Shown here: piece by piece, positions 1 to 52,485 of the stretch | Layout: each line of letters begins with the position of its first letter | Position numbering within the stretch: position 1 is the first letter of the stretch | Source: a virus | Taxonomy: Duplodnaviria > Caudoviricetes | Strand: one strand, 5' to 3' | IMG/VR virus record: IMGVR_UViG_3300033145_000528 | Coordinates: 1-52,485 of that record | DNA: 52,485 nt | Translations under genes and position numbers: made by a program | The notes under the pieces: generated by a model | The model's database searches: none | The model's input: only the letters and a program-made list of their open reading frames with translations | Told to the model about the DNA's origin: nothing

Positions 1-114
1 ATTATTGAGGGGTATATAGAAAATGAAGAAACGTGGAAAGCTATGCGTCAAACTCGGGGCTTTGTAACAATACTATTGAAGGTACTTTCTGAACTCGAGA
101 TGTGTCATGAAGTT
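1..114. repeat. Terminal direct repeat, copy 1 (assembly overlap indicating a circular or terminally redundant genome)
   Basis: Bases 1-114 are identical to 52372-52485, and an ORF starting at 52309 reads through the junction to a stop at 127-129. Confidence 0.95.
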
Positions 115-132
115 GAACTCAAGGGATGATGA

Positions 133-390
133 ATGATGAAAACAACAGTAGTCCATTGTAAGAAAGCTCCTTTTGATATCTACATTGGGCGTCCATCAAA
201 ATGGGGAAATCCATTTATTATAGGCAAGGATGGGACAAGGGAGGAGGTGATTGAGAAATATTTAGAATACATTTTGGGGAATGATAAGCTTATGGCAGCG
301 TTACCAGAACTAAAAGGGAAAAGGCTTGGATGCTGGTGTAAACCGCTGGCTTGTCATGGAGATGTGCTGGCAGAATTATGTGAAATGTAA
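133..390 (+). CDS. DUF4326 family protein
   Basis: VVHCKK..DIYIGRPSKWGNPF..G.REEVI.KY..LKGKRLGCWCKP.ACHGDVL signature. Confidence 0.9.
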   Translation: MMKTTVVHCKKAPFDIYIGRPSKWGNPFIIGKDGTREEVIEKYLEYILGNDKLMAALPELKGKRLGCWCKPLACHGDVLAELCEM

Positions 391-1637
391 TGTGGAGGAT
401 ACGAGGAATTATGAGAATAGTAGCTATTGACACCGAGACAATACGAGGGGGTGAGCCGTGGAGTGTGCAGATGGCGGATATGGGGCTGAGAAATACTGCA
501 CGTATGTATTACTGTGACATACCACAGGAAATGTGTATAGTCAAGGGGATATTAGAGAAGAATTATGTGCTCACTGTTCTCCACAATGCCAAGTTTGACC
601 TCCGAGTGCTGTCCCAGCTTAACATCCATCCTGCTCACTACGAGTGTACCATGCAGATGGCATACCTGTTAGGCGAACCCAGCCTTAGTCTGAAAGTGTT
701 GGCTTATCGGATAGCAGGTATAGACATGCTAACCTATGAGGATGTCACACGAGAAGCCACGCAAGATAAGGCACGAGCATATTTAATGGAAGTTGTATCA
801 CGGGAATGGGACGATCCTGAACCCGTCATCAAAACAGCCAATGATGGCACAACCAAATTATCATTCCCCAAAAACATTAAGGGAAAAGTGAAAAGATTGT
901 TGGCCAAAGAGGCGAACGACCCATCCACAGACCTGTATGCCGTGTGGAAAGCTATGGATATAACAGGTGGTAGAGGCCAGGTTGAGGCCATCATGGGCAT
1001 AATGGAACGTGCGTATCTGAACGAGATTGACCCGCAGGATGCCGAGGAATACGCCAAACTTGACTCTGAGGCGACTTTAGCCATTTACCCTTACCTACAC
1101 ACCCAAATAGAACGATACGGCTTGCAAGGGGTGTTAGAACGTGATATGGATATTGTCCCAATGGTCATGGAAATGGAAGACAATGGAATAAAACTGGATA
1201 TACCTGTATTAGAGGAATTGAGGACAGACTTAGATAGGCTGGCAGCAGATACACAAGTAGACATAAACTACCTGGCAAAGGGTTATGTTAATCCCAGAAG
1301 TTCCAAGCAAGTAGCGGCATTGCTACAGGACATGGGGATATACACGGATATGGAAACAAGTACGGATGCTCACATACTCGACCAGCATAGAGAGCATACT
1401 ATTGTCAATAAGATACAGGATTACAGAGCATATACCAAATTACAGTCTACTTATGTGGATGCTCTTATCAAGAAAGCACAGGCATCATCTGATGGCAAGA
1501 TACACACGCAGTTCTCCATGACACGAACTGAGACTGGGCGTCTTGCTTCATCCAAGCCGAATTTACAGAATATACCGGTGAGGACAGAGCTTGGACGTAG
1601 AATACGACAGGCATTTGTAAGTGAAAGGGGCGAATAA
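390..1637 (+). CDS. polA: Family A DNA polymerase, N-terminal part (3'-5' exonuclease, thumb, start of palm); probable start at 411
   Basis: ExoI AIDTET, ExoII LHNAKFDL, ExoIII YAKLD, KLQSTYVD, TETGRLASSKPNLQNIP. Ends IRQAFVSERGE* just before motif A. RBS GAGGA precedes ATG 411. Confidence 0.93.
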   Translation: MWRIRGIMRIVAIDTETIRGGEPWSVQMADMGLRNTARMYYCDIPQEMCIVKGILEKNYVLTVLHNAKFDLRVLSQLNIHPAHYECTMQMAYLLGEPSLSLKVLAYRIAGIDMLTYEDVTREATQDKARAYLMEVVSREWDDPEPVIKTANDGTTKLSFPKNIKGKVKRLLAKEANDPSTDLYAVWKAMDITGGRGQVEAIMGIMERAYLNEIDPQDAEEYAKLDSEATLAIYPYLHTQIERYGLQGVLERDMDIVPMVMEMEDNGIKLDIPVLEELRTDLDRLAADTQVDINYLAKGYVNPRSSKQVAALLQDMGIYTDMETSTDAHILDQHREHTIVNKIQDYRAYTKLQSTYVDALIKKAQASSDGKIHTQFSMTRTETGRLASSKPNLQNIPVRTELGRRIRQAFVSERGE

Positions 1638-1801
1638 TGCGTAAAAAGAGACGGTCTAATCTGACCACGAAACAGATTGCTAAGATAGTATTATTGATGG
1701 AGCAGGGCGTAACACAAAGACATATAGCAGAGCGGTTTAACACGACATGTACTACTGTGCGTGATGCAATTAAGCGGAATAGGGAGATGCAACATGATTA
1801 A
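1637..1801 (+). CDS. Small helix-turn-helix protein (54 aa) between the polymerase halves
   Basis: Manual translation MRKKRRSNLTTKQIAKIVLLMEQGVTQRHIAERFNTTCTTVRDAIKR; HTH pattern; TAATG coupling to the upstream gene. Confidence 0.75.
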   Translation: MRKKRRSNLTTKQIAKIVLLMEQGVTQRHIAERFNTTCTTVRDAIKRNREMQHD

Positions 1802-1850
1802 TTGTTCCCTACTTGCCCTTGACTATTCCCAAATCGAAAGGAGAGAATAA
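1794..1850 (+). pseudogene. 18-codon stub duplicating the start of the polymerase C-terminal gene (motif A)
   Basis: MINCSLLALDYSQIERRE* versus MVDCSLLALDYSQIELR at 2208; 12 identical consecutive residues with mostly synonymous nucleotide differences. Confidence 0.9.
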
Positions 1851-2215
1851 TGTCAAGAAATTTATGTAACACGGTTTGTTATTTCTGTGGTCATGAGGTT
1901 GAATTGGTTGAAGAGCCAAGAGAAATAACAAAGGGGGATGCTGGTGTTTATTACGCAGAGTATAAGGGTATGTTAGTCGCTGACGCCAGATGCCCCATCT
2001 GTTTAGCAGAATATTTAGCATGGGTTGACGATAGCAAATGTACTGGACATACAAGAAGCACGGGAGAGTACGGTAGCTTTTTTGATTTGTCGTTTCGCTC
2101 CAGTTTTGATGATGAGCCGGACGATGATGATTTACCTCAATATGATGTACAGGTAATATATCATCGTGTTAGTAGGATAAACCAGAGAATAGGGGGTAAG
2201 GTACGGAATGGTTGA
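1850..2215 (+). CDS. Hypothetical zinc-finger protein between the polymerase halves
   Basis: CYFC and CPIC pairs; RBS AAGGAG; TAATG coupling. Confidence 0.7.
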   Translation: MSRNLCNTVCYFCGHEVELVEEPREITKGDAGVYYAEYKGMLVADARCPICLAEYLAWVDDSKCTGHTRSTGEYGSFFDLSFRSSFDDEPDDDDLPQYDVQVIYHRVSRINQRIGGKVRNG

Positions 2216-2954
2216 TTGCAGCCTACTGGCATTAGATTATTCGCAAATCGAATTGCGTGTAGCAGCCCACGAGTCCCAAGACCCGACCATGCTTGACATA
2301 TTTCGTAATGATGGCGATATGCATATGACAACTGCCTGTCGAATGTTCGGATTGCCCCCTGAAAAGATTGATGACAAGAAACATAGACGACCTGCCAAGA
2401 CCACAAATTTCGGCACAATATATTTAATAAGTGCCAAGGGGCTGTGGCAACAATTCCAGCACGAGGGGCTGACTCAATTCACCAAAAAGGACTGCCGGCA
2501 TTTTCTTGATAGTTGGCGTGGGGCATATCCAGGGTTCTTTGATTGGGTAGAAGAGGTAAGCGCGGAAGCACGCCGTACTGGTATGGTTAGGGACATGTTT
2601 GGTAGGATACGATTCATCCCAGAGGTTAATTCATCACTCAAATATGTGAGGGAAGCTGGTATACGGCAGGCTGTTAATGCACCTATACAGTCAGGAGCAG
2701 GAGGTATATTAAAAGAGGCAATGAGGCAACTACAGCCTATAGTACACCAATGGCAAACTGACTATGGTATCGTATGTCGCCTTTTGCTTCAAGTTCACGA
2801 TGAGCTTATATTTGAAGTGGAAGATGAGTGGCTGCCAACAATAGCTCCACAATTACACGATATTATGGTAAATGCGGTAAGATTGAGCGTGCCTATTAAA
2901 GTGGATGTAGAAACAGGGTACAATTGGAAAGATTTGGGGGCATATAAATTCTAA
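2208..2954 (+). CDS. polA: Family A DNA polymerase, C-terminal catalytic part (motifs A, B, C)
   Basis: Motif A DYSQIELR, motif B RRPAKTTNFGTIY, NAPIQSG, motif C LQVHDELIFE. Confidence 0.95.
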   Translation: MVDCSLLALDYSQIELRVAAHESQDPTMLDIFRNDGDMHMTTACRMFGLPPEKIDDKKHRRPAKTTNFGTIYLISAKGLWQQFQHEGLTQFTKKDCRHFLDSWRGAYPGFFDWVEEVSAEARRTGMVRDMFGRIRFIPEVNSSLKYVREAGIRQAVNAPIQSGAGGILKEAMRQLQPIVHQWQTDYGIVCRLLLQVHDELIFEVEDEWLPTIAPQLHDIMVNAVRLSVPIKVDVETGYNWKDLGAYKF

Positions 2955-2968
2955 CAAGGGAGTAATAT

Positions 2969-3805
2969 ATGGAACGCATCAATAACGTAATCGTAGTATC
3001 AGACACGCATTGTGGGTGCAGGCTCGGTTTATGCCCGCCTGTAGACATCCCACTCGATGATGGTGGTTTCTATAGAGCATCAGCCCTACAACAAAAGGTA
3101 TGGGCATGGTGGGTAGAGTTCTGGGGAGAGTGGGTCCCAACCGTAACAAGGAACGAGCCCTTTGTAGTGGTTATGAATGGGGATGCCATGGATGGTGTGC
3201 ATCATGACACCGTAACCCAGATTTCGCAGAACCTATCCGACCAGAGGCGTATTGCGAAGATGGTTCTTGAGCCAGTAGTAAAACAGTGTTCCGGCAATTT
3301 CTATCTGATACGTGGTACGGAAGCCCATGTTGGCAAATCTGGTCAGAATGAGGAAACACTCGCAGAGGAACTTGGAGCTTTGCCCGATAAGCAGGGAAAT
3401 TATGCACGGTGGGATTTATGGTTGAATGTCGGTGGGAAAGGCTTGGTGAATATACTACACCACATTGGGTCTACTGGAAGCCTTGCTTATGAGACCACAG
3501 CACTCATGAAAGAATATACTGAGGCTTGTAGTGATGCAGGCAGGTGGAATCGTGAAGCCCCTCAGATAGTAGTTAGGTCGCATCGCCATAGGTCGGCTGA
3601 AATAAGAGTGCCCATAGAAGAGGGTTATGGGATTTGTATAGTTACTCCAGGATGGCAATTAAAAACCCCCCTCGTGTGGCGTGTGCCAGGTGCACGTCTT
3701 ACCACGCCTCAATTTGGCGGTATTCTTATTCGTGCAGGCGATGAGGAACTATATACCCGTAGCAAGATATGGAGTGTTGATAGGACAGAAACGGAGGAGA
3801 TATGA
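2969..3805 (+). CDS. Calcineurin-like metallophosphoesterase
   Basis: SDTHCG, NGDAMD, GTEAH, HH and SHRH metal-binding motifs. Confidence 0.8.
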   Translation: MERINNVIVVSDTHCGCRLGLCPPVDIPLDDGGFYRASALQQKVWAWWVEFWGEWVPTVTRNEPFVVVMNGDAMDGVHHDTVTQISQNLSDQRRIAKMVLEPVVKQCSGNFYLIRGTEAHVGKSGQNEETLAEELGALPDKQGNYARWDLWLNVGGKGLVNILHHIGSTGSLAYETTALMKEYTEACSDAGRWNREAPQIVVRSHRHRSAEIRVPIEEGYGICIVTPGWQLKTPLVWRVPGARLTTPQFGGILIRAGDEELYTRSKIWSVDRTETEEI

Positions 3806-4047
3806 CAAAAATAACTCTTGATGAATTGATGGGTGAAATTGATGTTCTGATAAGTGAGGCTAAAATAAGACCGGCACCGCTTACTGAAGACCAGTATCGC
3901 TGCATAAAAGTGGCACGAGAGGCGGATAATCCAGTAACTTGGCGCCGCCTTGCACAATGGTGGAAAGACAGGGGATGGGGAGAAATACGTGTAAATACGT
4001 TAAAAAGTCGTTATTACGATTATAGAATTGGGAAAGGAGACAAATGA
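3802..4047 (+). CDS. Hypothetical protein (possible HTH)
   Basis: ATGA overlap with the upstream gene, RBS GGAG. Confidence 0.6.
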   Translation: MTKITLDELMGEIDVLISEAKIRPAPLTEDQYRCIKVAREADNPVTWRRLAQWWKDRGWGEIRVNTLKSRYYDYRIGKGDK

Positions 4048-4202: not shown

Positions 4203-4888
4203 ACCCTAAAAGAGAACGTCAACGCCCATTCCATGCCTTCGAGGTATATCGTGATCTTGGATATGGACGCACATATAGGGCGGTAGCACGGCAGGTTGAT
4301 GCGTCCCCTGGTACTATATCTCATTGGGCAAAGGTTTACAAATGGGACGAGCGTATCAAAGAGAATGACATTATTGTGCAGCGGAAAAGGGATGCTGGGG
4401 CTATAATGCCTATTGACGATCCAGTCGCCAAGCGTCTTACAGATATAATGAACAAAATGGAGGCGATTATTGATAGTTGTTTCGTGAAAGAGCCTGGTGG
4501 TGATTTCTCGCTTAAAGATAGTCTTAAAATCACGAATGCAGAAGATTTGACCAAGATTATCGCCGAATACCGTAAATTCCTCGAAACCTACCATAAATTT
4601 GTTGCAGAATATATGCCTGATAAAAAAGGCAAAGACCGTTCTACAAAGATTGATAAACTAAACGTGTTTATGGGTGATTTGTCCCAGCAAGAGCGTATTG
4701 ATGTTATGAAGGGGATTGCAAATGAAAATGCCTCTGGAAGAAATAAGCAACCTGAGGGAAGAGTTTCGGAAGCAGATTATACAGAAGTACTTGAACGAGG
4801 GAATGAAGACAGACCTGGACGTACAGGAGTTTCTGGCAGCCCTGCAAATAGCGGTAGTAGGGACGAGGAGACTATGCGGGAATCCTGA
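4184..4888 (+). CDS. terS: Terminase small subunit (HTH)
   Basis: N-terminal AFEVYRDLG.GRTYRAVA..ISHWAKVYKWDER HTH followed by helical region; lies directly before TerL. Confidence 0.75.
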   Translation: MPRYKLDPKRERQRPFHAFEVYRDLGYGRTYRAVARQVDASPGTISHWAKVYKWDERIKENDIIVQRKRDAGAIMPIDDPVAKRLTDIMNKMEAIIDSCFVKEPGGDFSLKDSLKITNAEDLTKIIAEYRKFLETYHKFVAEYMPDKKGKDRSTKIDKLNVFMGDLSQQERIDVMKGIANENASGRNKQPEGRVSEADYTEVLERGNEDRPGRTGVSGSPANSGSRDEETMRES

Positions 4889-7262
4889 CCACGTATCACA
4901 GTTCGGGGTTGTATCCGACATACTCAGAGAAGCGGTGACATATTACGTTATATGGGCGTGCAGGTCAGGTAGTAAGACATTTCTGTTTGGCGGGCTGGAT
5001 TCGTGGGTAAAGAGTTGTAGTCGCCACCATTACGAGACCCGCTTATTAGGTGGGAGTAAGGATCAATCATTATTGTCTTACAAAGCCATGAGTAGGTTTC
5101 GTGACGAAACTGACCCGTTGAATACTCGCTTGGATGGGGATATTCTACAATCACGGGCAACATTCCTAAACAAATCGGAAGTGTCAATCCTTACTGCAAG
5201 TATGACTGCGGTACGTGGGCCACATCCTCAATCACTTAAACTTGATGAAGTAGATGAGATAGATGAGGAAGTATATGAAGCCGCCCTCTCGCAACCAATG
5301 GAAAATTTTGGTTACAAAGACTCACTGGGTATGTTTTCCACGAATCACAACGTCATGGGGCAAATGGATAAAGCGCTTGTAAACGCAAAAGAGCATGGCC
5401 ACGGTATCTACAAATACTGCATTTGGGAGGTCATGGCATCGTGCAGGGATTATAACTGCTCTACGTGTCCCCTTTCCGGGATATGTCCTGGCAAGCAAAT
5501 GAAAGAAGCGGATGGTTATTATTCTGTGGGGGCGTTTATTAAGAAACTCGAAACACTCTCCTATTCCATGTTGGCACGGGATTGGTTATGTATAAAAGTA
5601 GGTCTCGGGGACACGGTGTATGAGCAGGAATGGGATGAGGATACAAATCTATGTAGCGTAGCATTGCAACAAGCCCCTGTGATATTGAGTGTTGACTTTG
5701 GTGGTGTATCGCCGTTTTCTGTAGGTGTATGGCAGGAAGCACCAGATAGACTTGGCGGAAAAGGTACGTGGATACGGGTTACCGAATTGTATATGTGTTC
5801 TGAAGGGACGTATGAAGGGTCTGATAAAAAGAAGGAAACATCTGTTACCAATGCCCAGGTCATCGCACGTGCATTAAAAGCCCCCTGGGCTAAATTAGTA
5901 ACCGAAATAATACCCGACAATTCACGTCCAGACAGCATTCAAGAGTGGAGAGAGGCATTTCCACATGCTAAAATGACTATTGTGAAAAAAGATATAGATG
6001 GCATGATAGACCGTGTTAAATCGGCTCTGAAGCCTATTACTGGCACGCCTAAGATGTTGATTAATCGTATCTGTATGCACTGGCGGCAAGAGGTGCTGAT
6101 GTATGCTGTAAAGAATGATAAGCCAGTAGATAAAAACAATCACTGTTATGACGATCAAACTGAGATACTAACTGAATATGGGTGGAAACTATTTAAGGAT
6201 TTGGATAGGCAGGAAAGGGTAGCGTCCCTTGACAATGAGCGCAATCTTATATGGGCGGAGCCATCGGAGTATGTTGATTATGATTATAATGGTGATATGC
6301 TCGAATATTCTAATCGGCATTTCGGATTCTGTGTAACACCTAATCATAATATGCTTGTCGTATCACAATTCGATGCAAAGAAAACTAAGCAGTATAATCC
6401 ACGATTTGTACCTATTGAGGATATTGGGAATGCGGTGGGAAAAGAGAATAAGGGTAAGCGTAATAGAGCCTCGGTATGGTGGATACCTATGGTATGTAAT
6501 CCCCCTGAAGTTAAAGCCGAAAAGCTGATTGATGGGTATTTTCTCGGATTCTGGTTGGCAGAGGGATGTAAGTCTATTAGCGGTTTTGGGGCTAAATATG
6601 TCCATATTGACAACACTAATATACAATTCTTAGAAAAGGCTACTGCTTCTGTAGGGCATTCTCAGAAACCATACAGGACGGATTCGGGCTGTTATAGGGT
6701 GAGCATTCGTAGTGATGAGTTGTATGATATGCTTCCGAAACAGCGTAGTTGGGAAAAGCGGATTCCAAGATGGTTCATGGAAAACGCATCCACAGCGCAG
6801 TTAAAGCGATTGTATCTTGGTATGATGGATGGGGATGGATGTTGGCAGAGTGCGAGTAGCCACTATAATACTTGTAGTTACGGGTTAGCATCTGACTTTC
6901 AGGAACTTCTAATTAGAATTGGTTTGTATGGAACACTCAGAAAAATAGGTGATGCTGGTACTATAAGTTATATAAGGGGAAGAAAAGTAATATCGAAGCA
7001 TCCGCAATATAGGGTAATTATAAATATCAATAACTCAATCTACAAAGCTATACGTGGTGAGAAACTTAAACGGATTAAGTACTCTGGGAAAATCTATTGT
7101 GTAGTTGTAGAGCCATATCATACTATCATGGTGAGGCGTAATGGTAGTACGATGTGGTGCGGGCAGACAATGGATGAGACTGGTTATTTTGCACTGGCTA
7201 AGTTAGGTGAGGAAGAGGGTGTGTATGTTGGGACTACTAAACATGATGTTATGCCAAGATAG
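4722..7262 (+). CDS. terL: Terminase large subunit containing an intein
   Basis: Walker A-like ACRSGSKT, Walker B LKLDEVDE, nuclease SVDFG and DKNNH|TMD; located between TerS and portal. RBS AAGGGG precedes ATG 4722. Confidence 0.88.
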   Translation: MKMPLEEISNLREEFRKQIIQKYLNEGMKTDLDVQEFLAALQIAVVGTRRLCGNPDHVSQFGVVSDILREAVTYYVIWACRSGSKTFLFGGLDSWVKSCSRHHYETRLLGGSKDQSLLSYKAMSRFRDETDPLNTRLDGDILQSRATFLNKSEVSILTASMTAVRGPHPQSLKLDEVDEIDEEVYEAALSQPMENFGYKDSLGMFSTNHNVMGQMDKALVNAKEHGHGIYKYCIWEVMASCRDYNCSTCPLSGICPGKQMKEADGYYSVGAFIKKLETLSYSMLARDWLCIKVGLGDTVYEQEWDEDTNLCSVALQQAPVILSVDFGGVSPFSVGVWQEAPDRLGGKGTWIRVTELYMCSEGTYEGSDKKKETSVTNAQVIARALKAPWAKLVTEIIPDNSRPDSIQEWREAFPHAKMTIVKKDIDGMIDRVKSALKPITGTPKMLINRICMHWRQEVLMYAVKNDKPVDKNNHCYDDQTEILTEYGWKLFKDLDRQERVASLDNERNLIWAEPSEYVDYDYNGDMLEYSNRHFGFCVTPNHNMLVVSQFDAKKTKQYNPRFVPIEDIGNAVGKENKGKRNRASVWWIPMVCNPPEVKAEKLIDGYFLGFWLAEGCKSISGFGAKYVHIDNTNIQFLEKATASVGHSQKPYRTDSGCYRVSIRSDELYDMLPKQRSWEKRIPRWFMENASTAQLKRLYLGMMDGDGCWQSASSHYNTCSYGLASDFQELLIRIGLYGTLRKIGDAGTISYIRGRKVISKHPQYRVIININNSIYKAIRGEKLKRIKYSGKIYCVVVEPYHTIMVRRNGSTMWCGQTMDETGYFALAKLGEEEGVYVGTTKHDVMPR
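6144..7166 (+). mobile_element. Intein (341 aa) with LAGLIDADG homing endonuclease in TerL
   Basis: Begins CYDDQTEILTEYGWK; block B VTPNHNM; LAGLIDADG-like FLGFWLAEG and YLGMMDGDG; ends YCVVVEPYHTIMVRRNG..WCGQ before a Thr. Confidence 0.92.
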
Positions 7263-52071: not shown

Positions 52072-52115
52072 TACATTGTAAGAAAGAACTCTCAGAAAAT
52101 AAATATGTTTTATGA
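52056..52115 (+). pseudogene. Stub duplicating the 5' end of the DUF4326 gene
   Basis: METKVVHCKKELSENKYVL* versus MKTTVVHCKKAPF at 136. Confidence 0.8.
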
Positions 52116-52124
52116 AAGGAGTGA

Positions 52125-52316
52125 ATGATGAATACTGAAGCAGATTTATTAAATGCAATTAAAGAAATTCATTATGAACTGGCAGCATTACTTCCTGATC
52201 CATCTAATCCAGATTGGATGTCATTATTAACAAATGGTAATTCTGCTGATGCAAAGTGTTTACAAAATGTTTGGGATATTACAGAGAATATTTTGAAAGG
52301 GATGGATGATGATTAA
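52125..52316 (+). CDS. Hypothetical protein
   Basis: RBS AAGGAG. Confidence 0.55.
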   Translation: MMNTEADLLNAIKEIHYELAALLPDPSNPDWMSLLTNGNSADAKCLQNVWDITENILKGMDDD

Positions 52317-52485
52317 AGCAGTCGGAAAACAAATAATTTGTGATTTAGACGGGCAGAGAGATACTATTGATATTATTGAGGGGTATATAGAAAATGAAGA
52401 AACGTGGAAAGCTATGCGTCAAACTCGGGGCTTTGTAACAATACTATTGAAGGTACTTTCTGAACTCGAGATGTGTCATGAAGTT
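52309..52485 (+). CDS. Hypothetical protein spanning the circular junction (stop at 127-129)
   Basis: MIKAVGKQIICDLDGQRDTIDIIEGY...ELKG*, continuous across the terminal repeat. Confidence 0.6.
   Translation, partial: MIKAVGKQIICDLDGQRDTIDIIEGYIENEETWKAMRQTRGFVTILLKVLSELEMCHEV
52372..52485. repeat. Terminal direct repeat, copy 2
   Basis: Identical to bases 1-114. Confidence 0.95.

Follow-up and report, generated by a model that had tools for sequence, protein, structure and literature searches.

The question raised by this locus is whether, and in what way, a family A DNA polymerase (PolA) whose gene is interrupted inside its catalytic domain can still give rise to an enzyme. Single-chain enzymes of this family are familiar from textbooks and are mainstays of laboratory work. 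In the virus record IMGVR_UViG_3300033145_000528 (Caudoviricetes), a complete 52,485-bp genome flanked by direct terminal repeats (hereafter the window), the polymerase is encoded on the plus strand by two open reading frames (ORFs), an N-half of 415 amino acids (aa; 390..1637) and a C-half of 248 aa (2208..2954), and the gap of 570 nucleotides (nt) between them is filled by coupled ORFs. With a probability of roughly 0.8, we read this as a two-chain polymerase of the genes-in-pieces kind, whose break has turned into a hot spot of recombination, flanked by copies of a Shine-Dalgarno/stop/start module.

Anatomy of the split polymerase

A search with PF00476 over the whole record matched the N-half and the C-half alone, and no other PolA was found. 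The N-half, which ends in RQAFVSERGE, comprises a 3'-5' exonuclease domain (DNA_pol_A_exo1, 53.3 bits) and the first part of the polymerase domain (DNA_pol_A, 123.9 bits, profile positions 3-149 of 381). The C-half, which starts MVDCSLLALDYSQIELR, covers positions 152-381 of the same profile (222.8 bits) and holds the motif A strand, the fingers with motif B, and motif C. Jointly, the two halves cover the whole DNA_pol_A profile above the cut-off. The C-half contains motif A (DYSQIELR), motif B (RRPAKTTNFGTIY) and motif C (QVHDE), each identical or conservatively changed in the Klenow alignment, and the residue pairs D14/E16, N66/D70 and Y221/D225 of the three exonuclease motifs are invariant across 16 N-halves. 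The catalytic residues are invariant over 16 N-half and 21 C-half sequences. Based on the profile coverage and the complete set of motifs, the pair belongs to the family A polymerases with a proofreading exonuclease, and the initial annotation, which had described a split PolA at these two ORFs with intact exonuclease and polymerase motifs, is borne out by the Klenow and Taq alignments and the invariant columns.

Structure alignment places N-half residues 245-414 on chain positions 135-309 of 2ktq_A (Taq large fragment) and C-half residues 6-241 on positions 312-534, with concordant alignments to Klenow. G414 and C4 therefore correspond to neighbouring residues of an ordinary PolA; no residue is lost at the break, and the surplus amounts to four residues (E415 and M1-D3). 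That nothing was missing and that the spacing was PolI-like had been proposed from joining VSERG to CSLLAL, and contiguous relatives agree with the alignments on this point: L042, L044, L047 and L048, 73-78% identical in the C-half, read ...AFVAEEGCSFLAFDYSQ, with the same spacing at the junction as in the joined halves of the window. Judged from these alignments, the break is in the loop ahead of the motif A strand, within the palm and one strand before the catalytic Asp. The 415-aa chain would carry the exonuclease, the thumb and the first palm strands, the 248-aa chain would carry the motif A strand, the fingers and the remaining palm, and we infer that the two assemble non-covalently into one active enzyme.

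The C-half has a ribosome-binding site of its own, as had been noted before (AAGG, 6 nt 5' of the ATG). From the N-half through a helix-turn-helix ORF (HTH54), a relic mini-ORF and a Cys-rich ORF (ORF121) to the C-half, the four junctions read TAATG, ATGATTAA, TAATG and ATGGTTGA, all of them stop/start overlaps, the last between the ORF121 stop and the C-half start. Because this chain of overlaps links four ORFs and the relic, the halves should stay co-expressed. The initial description of the gap as a series of coupled genes thus holds at every junction, the relic mini-ORF being an element that it had missed.

The break among related loci

The curated phage collection held no close relative, with C-half identities below 40% in tblastn and three short matches in blastn of 6 kb. 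Viral and metagenome contigs, on the other hand, yielded 71 related loci, or 72 with the window, and 61 of these are distinct when compared over the 150 nt that begin at the C-half match. A comparison of homologs, to see if they are split at the same residue, had been suggested as a check: 46 of the 61 distinct loci are split at the same codon, nine are contiguous, and six are not judgeable as the contig ends. The split loci are drawn from many separate assemblies. Where the match begins at residue 1 (40 split loci), the C-half starts with ATG in 33 and with GTG in seven; the stop of the upstream ORF lies 8 nt inside the C-half in 33 of the 40, which is the same overlap as between HTH54 and the relic, and in 39 of them each half has its own stop or start together with a coupling overlap. 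None of the 31 distinct split loci whose two ends lie on the contig lacks either half. Separate stops and starts, and contiguous homologs in relatives, are the marks of genes in pieces, and both are found here.

The gap is far less conserved than the break. It measures 160-2277 bp in these 31 loci (median 363), and its ORF content is largely unrelated from locus to locus. The 102 plus-strand gap ORFs of at least 35 aa, some share of which are chance ORFs, fall into 71 clusters, of which 17 occur in at least two loci; the shortest gaps (160-187 bp) are mostly occupied by ORFs.

The same site is split in L054 (57% identical) and in L077 (N-half tail ...FVAERSE). In L077 (2665-3720), a more distant relative, the C-half carries an in-frame fusion to a Cys-rich peptide of 110 residues, which stands in place of the usual MxxCSLLAL lead-in, and the protein reads ...LIVTWSQMDYSQIELR. 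Among 40 viral loci related to P0042/P0058, 38 are contiguous, one is split (L077), and one has an intein at DY|SQ (L084); scans with P0053 and P0036 gave no matches. A search for distant lineages by representatives returned 30,239 matches at E<=0.001. Among the best 150 of these, nine proteins of 237-274 aa match from their residues 2-25, and seven of the nine begin 3-15 residues ahead of the motif A Asp. These short C-half-like proteins, which include P0042 and P0058 with their mostly contiguous relatives, are known without genomic context and are not counted as splits.

The close clade has 100/99 support in the tree of 44 C-half rows, and 33 split rows, four contiguous rows and one row of unknown state are intermixed in it. 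Six changes are needed to explain the labels, and well-supported branches force at least two of these. In the N-half tree, built from 26 rows with a quick method, three changes are needed, at least two of them forced. Such intermixing in poorly resolved trees fits a single origin, repeated gain, precise loss or allele recombination alike, and recombination is likely to have taken place.

Selection and the predicted assembly

Both halves are under strong purifying selection. Between split loci, the ratio of nonsynonymous to synonymous substitution rates (dN/dS) of the C-half has a median of 0.071 and a maximum of 0.132 (58 usable of 105 pairs, the unusable ones being saturated), and that of the N-half has a median of 0.112 and a range of 0.067-0.316 (52 usable of 91 pairs). 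Neither half is therefore decaying. These values argue against the alternative that the two proteins are no longer a polymerase, through gene decay or through separate jobs such as that of a stand-alone proofreading exonuclease, and that the host polymerase is used instead. This alternative finds some support in related phage groups without any polymerase gene (PMC12695635). However, the catalytic residues are invariant in the two sets of 16 and 21 sequences, both halves are kept in 31 of 31 loci, and a lone C-half would be without the thumb and the primer-binding part, which makes the loss of the polymerase improbable.

A co-fold of the two chains, which had been proposed as a further check, was run with alignments of 16 N-half and 21 C-half natural sequences and gave an interface score (ipSAE) of 0.86 in three runs, compared with 0.66 for the best control. 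Of 80 solved complexes, 58 reached the mark set for this comparison, as did two of 110 mismatched pairs. The runs have at least 97% of contacts in common, with a predicted local distance difference test (pLDDT) score of at least 90 for the partner, and in the model the final N-half strand (residues 406-414) packs against residues 2-6 and 237-242 of the C-half. As a model, the co-fold shows likeness to the PolA fold, not binding. Of the interpretation put forward in the initial annotation, the two-subunit part fits the computational evidence, namely the conserved split, the purifying selection, the coupled genes and the passing co-fold; the part that would have the halves rejoined finds no support.

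Evidence against rejoining of the halves

For rejoining by splicing or by ribosome bypass there is no support: stops follow the break, no intein or Rfam intron was found, and the gaps are unrelated. The earlier observation that the 570-bp gap contains neither intein blocks nor an intron core was upheld by Pfam and Rfam searches.

An unrecognised self-splicing intron holding the gap ORFs would rejoin the halves in RNA. The Rfam search of window positions 1-4000 at E<=10 found no intron family, giving three chance-level matches (E 1.8-4.7) below gathering, and 19 related loci (140,645 bases) gave no match at the gathering score. Besides, the gap sequence is unrelated among relatives, which argues against a conserved ribozyme or bypass signal, and some gaps measure a mere 160-187 bp and are largely ORF. 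The halves have their own stop and start with a coupling overlap in 39 of 40 loci, and the four surplus residues would need to be removed exactly by splicing. Against this stand the group I introns known in phage polA genes, the possibility of an intron put forward by the authors for the MEP401 phages of OM43 bacteria, in which the polymerase is divided too (PMC10580990), and the single frame shared by the three polymerase-derived pieces of the window. On balance, we consider an intron quite improbable.

It is more improbable still that the two proteins are joined by a split intein, as in "fractured genes", or that ribosome bypass joins them in translation. Inteins are common in this polymerase clade, and the first conserved residue of the C-half is a Cys, the usual +1 nucleophile, but the same Cys is native in the contiguous relatives. 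The gap ORFs have no intein domain in Pfam, a search in which the real inteins of relatives do score, and the halves bear no split-intein extensions; compared with Taq and Klenow, E415 and M1-D3 alone are extra. Since the halves abut on both structures, they leave no room for intein pieces of about 100 and 35 aa. In programmed ribosome bypass of the T4 gene 60 type, the gap is short and untranslated, and its take-off and landing codons match. In the window, the 570-nt gap is filled with ORFs and differs in each relative, unlike a bypass element; the N-half frame runs into another stop nine codons past its first TAA, and no frame is open across the gap; and no GAA landing codon that would match the N-half take-off codon GAA precedes the TGC of the C-half. 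A sequencing or assembly artefact of this record can practically be dismissed, since 46 distinct loci, taken from many assemblies made independently, share the break, and so does the isolate genome MEP401.

Contents and boundaries of the gap

HTH54 (1637..1801, plus strand) encodes a 54-aa helix-turn-helix protein and is the commonest gap gene among the relatives (eight loci). Within PHROG, it best matches the C-terminal part of phrog_20467, annotated as an HNH endonuclease (E 2.3e-7); longer homologs of HTH54 were sought and none were found. ORF121 (1850..2215, plus strand) encodes a 121-aa Cys-rich accessory protein (CxxC...CxxC) for which no family was found in Pfam or PHROG. In a protein atlas, it gave weak zinc-ribbon leads (template modelling score <=0.46; feature score 0.91 to unnamed clusters). 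A copy that is 72% identical lies 3' of the C-half in L070, and ORF121 is therefore movable cargo. L070 (1-1912) also contains a 479-aa ORF in which a repeat-rich, non-polymerase region is joined to C-half residues 125-248, which is either a chimeric assembly or a recombinant, and its ORF121 homolog on the 3' side is apparently broken into two ORFs.

The relic mini-ORF (1794..1850, plus strand) has 18 codons, MINCSLLALDYSQIERRE followed by a stop, and lies in the same frame as both halves. It begins ATG ATT AAT TGT and repeats the start of the C-half in a synonymously diverged form: positions 1794-1838 and 2208-2252 form a 45-nt direct repeat of 76% identity, overlooked in the initial annotation, and nearly all of the 11 differences are synonymous. 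The relic is identical to the C-half starts of other phages at up to 38 of 45 positions, versus 34 of 45 for the live start of its own genome. Being at least as close to the starts of other phages, it represents an older start, an allele of another lineage, and not a recent internal duplication. Its ATG overlaps the HTH54 stop and its TAA overlaps the ORF121 ATG.

The similarity between the relic and the C-half stops after CAAATCGAA, where the second copy of a 20-nt boundary module begins (ATCGAAAGGAGAGAATAATG, 1833..1852, plus strand). The first copy (AGTGAAAGGGGCGAATAATG, 1620..1639, plus strand) spans the end of the N-half, whose last codons, AGT GAA AGG GGC GAA TAA TG, form both a Shine-Dalgarno site and the stop/start overlap, with TAATG joining HTH54. 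A near copy lies at 52114, ahead of an unrelated 63-aa ORF. With up to four substitutions allowed, 23 copies of the module fall in the N-end and gap zones, spread over 19 of 34 loci, and the 312 kb of these loci that lie outside the zones contain none.

Footprints of recombination

Many gap ORFs of the relatives end in ...SERSE or in longer pieces of the N-half end, as in L006 (...NPVRTELGCRIRKAFISERSE), and mirror-image relics of the N-half 3' end are found in L006, L071, L003 and L022. A second C-half relic, MIECSLLALDFSQIELRMTTH followed by a stop, occurs in L049, ahead of a small ORF and then the live start. We read these relics as footprints of exchanges that combined a crossover within a conserved polymerase half with a second, illegitimate one.

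Under the two-chain reading, the history of the locus might be as follows. In the contiguous relatives, the loop ahead of motif A is coded by purine-rich, Shine-Dalgarno-like codons (AEEG). The split allele would be old and common to a whole clade. The space opened in this way would have become a recombination hot spot where small ORFs come and go, with the portable module of about 20 nt travelling with them and the conserved polymerase halves acting as homology arms. In the window, HTH54 would at an earlier stage have been followed directly by the C-half, and a later exchange with another phage would have brought in ORF121 with a fresh C-half 5' end, leaving the old start stranded as the relic.

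Inteins occupy at least four sites in this one enzyme clade: DY|SQ of motif A in L045/L062 (HNH), L068 (LAGLIDADG), L084 and P0007; TGRLAS|S in L059; RRPAK|T of motif B in P0004 (boundaries RRPAK|C...Q|TVNFG); and NAPIQ|S in L006, L053 and P0003. Two C-half relics end 12 and 18 nt beyond the DY|SQ insertion point. The live starts of the window (2208-2252) and of L049 (232-276) use unusual synonymous codons for L-A-L-D (CTGGCATTAGAT and CTGGCATTGGAT, respectively), compared with CTCGCCCTCGAC in most relatives; these codons span the presumed recognition site, and this allele may be resistant to cleavage. A more far-reaching possibility, which we regard as doubtful but worth stating, is that the break is a maintained gene-capture site in an essential gene: the module would admit small ORFs without upsetting coupled translation, and intein-borne HNH or LAGLIDADG cuts at motif A in co-infecting relatives would drive one-sided repair, cassette swaps and relics. 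Endonuclease cuts would then be the force behind the exchanges.

Several points weigh against a two-chain polymerase broken at a recombination hot spot. The co-fold was over its mark by exactly the minimum margin (+0.20), the control that scored 0.66 had chain 1 swapped for an unrelated protein, and the pass may reflect fold memory, because PolA has been solved many times as a single chain. The enrichment of the module is partly circular, as the string was derived from these same junctions. Besides, no intact homing endonuclease was found in any gap examined, the window gap has no nuclease domain, and the link between HTH54 and HNH endonucleases is a single PHROG match.

Other features of the window and related loci

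In L059 (2040-3080), the N-half intein at TGRLAS|SKPNLQ (Intein_splicing, 41.8 bits) leaves the polymerase frame open throughout, and its HNH endonuclease (ORF 2329..2904) lies in a different frame, through either out-of-frame nesting or two compensating assembly indels. In L007 (4942-5866), a 246-aa DNA methyltransferase-like ORF (DPFGGSGT motif) cuts polA between N-half residues 356 and 370, and the motif A junction is contiguous despite this split elsewhere. The window has, at 4716-7262 and after a small-terminase-like gene, an 848-aa ORF with LAGLIDADG_3 at residues 701-756 (E 2.1e-7); its insert, which begins CYDDQTEILTEYG, probably represents a large-terminase intein. One arm of a perfect 16-nt inverted repeat (TTTTGGGGAATGATAA) lies in a DUF4326 gene (272-287) and the other in the N-half (858-873), with 570 nt between them. 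The 5'-open ORF at 1-129 and the 3'-open ORF at 52306-52485 encode the same peptide (IIEGYIENEETWKAMRQ...), which fits a direct terminal repeat.

Comparison with known systems

If the two-chain palm is true, it would show where the PolA fold tolerates a break and would offer a ready-made split polymerase for complementation designs. The data also document an essential gene as the host of an accessory gene array with fast turnover, whose footprints record single recombination events.

Family A polymerases in two neighbouring genes, with reassembly inferred, are known from T7-like cyanophages, in which the exonuclease and polymerase domains are split (PMC10201439, PMC12695635), and a split of the same kind gives "DNA polymerase part I/II" in LUZ24-like phages (PMC3890496). 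In these phages, the break lies between domains, whereas that of the window runs through the polymerase domain, inside the palm. The published domain split has been called the first of its kind in PolAs, and the break in the window is more radical. Inteins, the split-intein "fractured genes" (PMC2677866) and group I introns are mobile elements that target the most conserved motifs of replication genes; the break in the window, on the other hand, has no intein or intron features, and the product is not rejoined.

Genes in pieces that arose through insertion of a mobile endonuclease include nrdA/mobE of Aeh1, the T4 topoisomerase with mobA, and gene 43 (PolB) of Aeromonas phages 25 and 44RR, where the split 43A and 43B pieces co-purify and polymerise (PMC2988022, PMC3045599). 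As in the window, an essential enzyme is cut in a functionally critical region, short new tails are found at the break, and the known pieces reassemble without RNA or protein splicing. In those systems, the gap is occupied by an endonuclease that is intact or, in 44RR, by an untranslated spacer, whereas that of the window holds an HTH remnant and unrelated small ORFs; besides, the enzyme is of family A and not B.

The closest parallel in layout is that of the OM43 phages MEP401/402 and most related metagenomic genomes, in which the polymerase consists of ORF13 and ORF15 around the small unknown ORF14 (PMC10580990). In OP830906, gp13 ends in ...LFLSRYGE and gp15 starts MILNADAKALE, at the same loop before motif A. 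Both systems combine the exonuclease and the N-part of PF00476 in one gene and the C-part of PF00476 in the next, with a small ORF between, and both have a calcineurin-like phosphoesterase gene on the 3' side. They differ in that the PolA lineages are very distant, with no close identity, and in that the gap of the window holds two ORFs and a relic; PMC10580990 left the mechanism open (possibly an intron) and the site unmapped, and reported no variable gap, relics or module. Our literature search, which was limited to article text, found no PolA break mapped to this residue and no description of a cassette-like gap. Overall, this type of break is already published for the marine phages MEP401/402, where it is unexplained; the window adds another case, and the data answer the question, left open in print for the MEP401 type, of whether an intron is involved.

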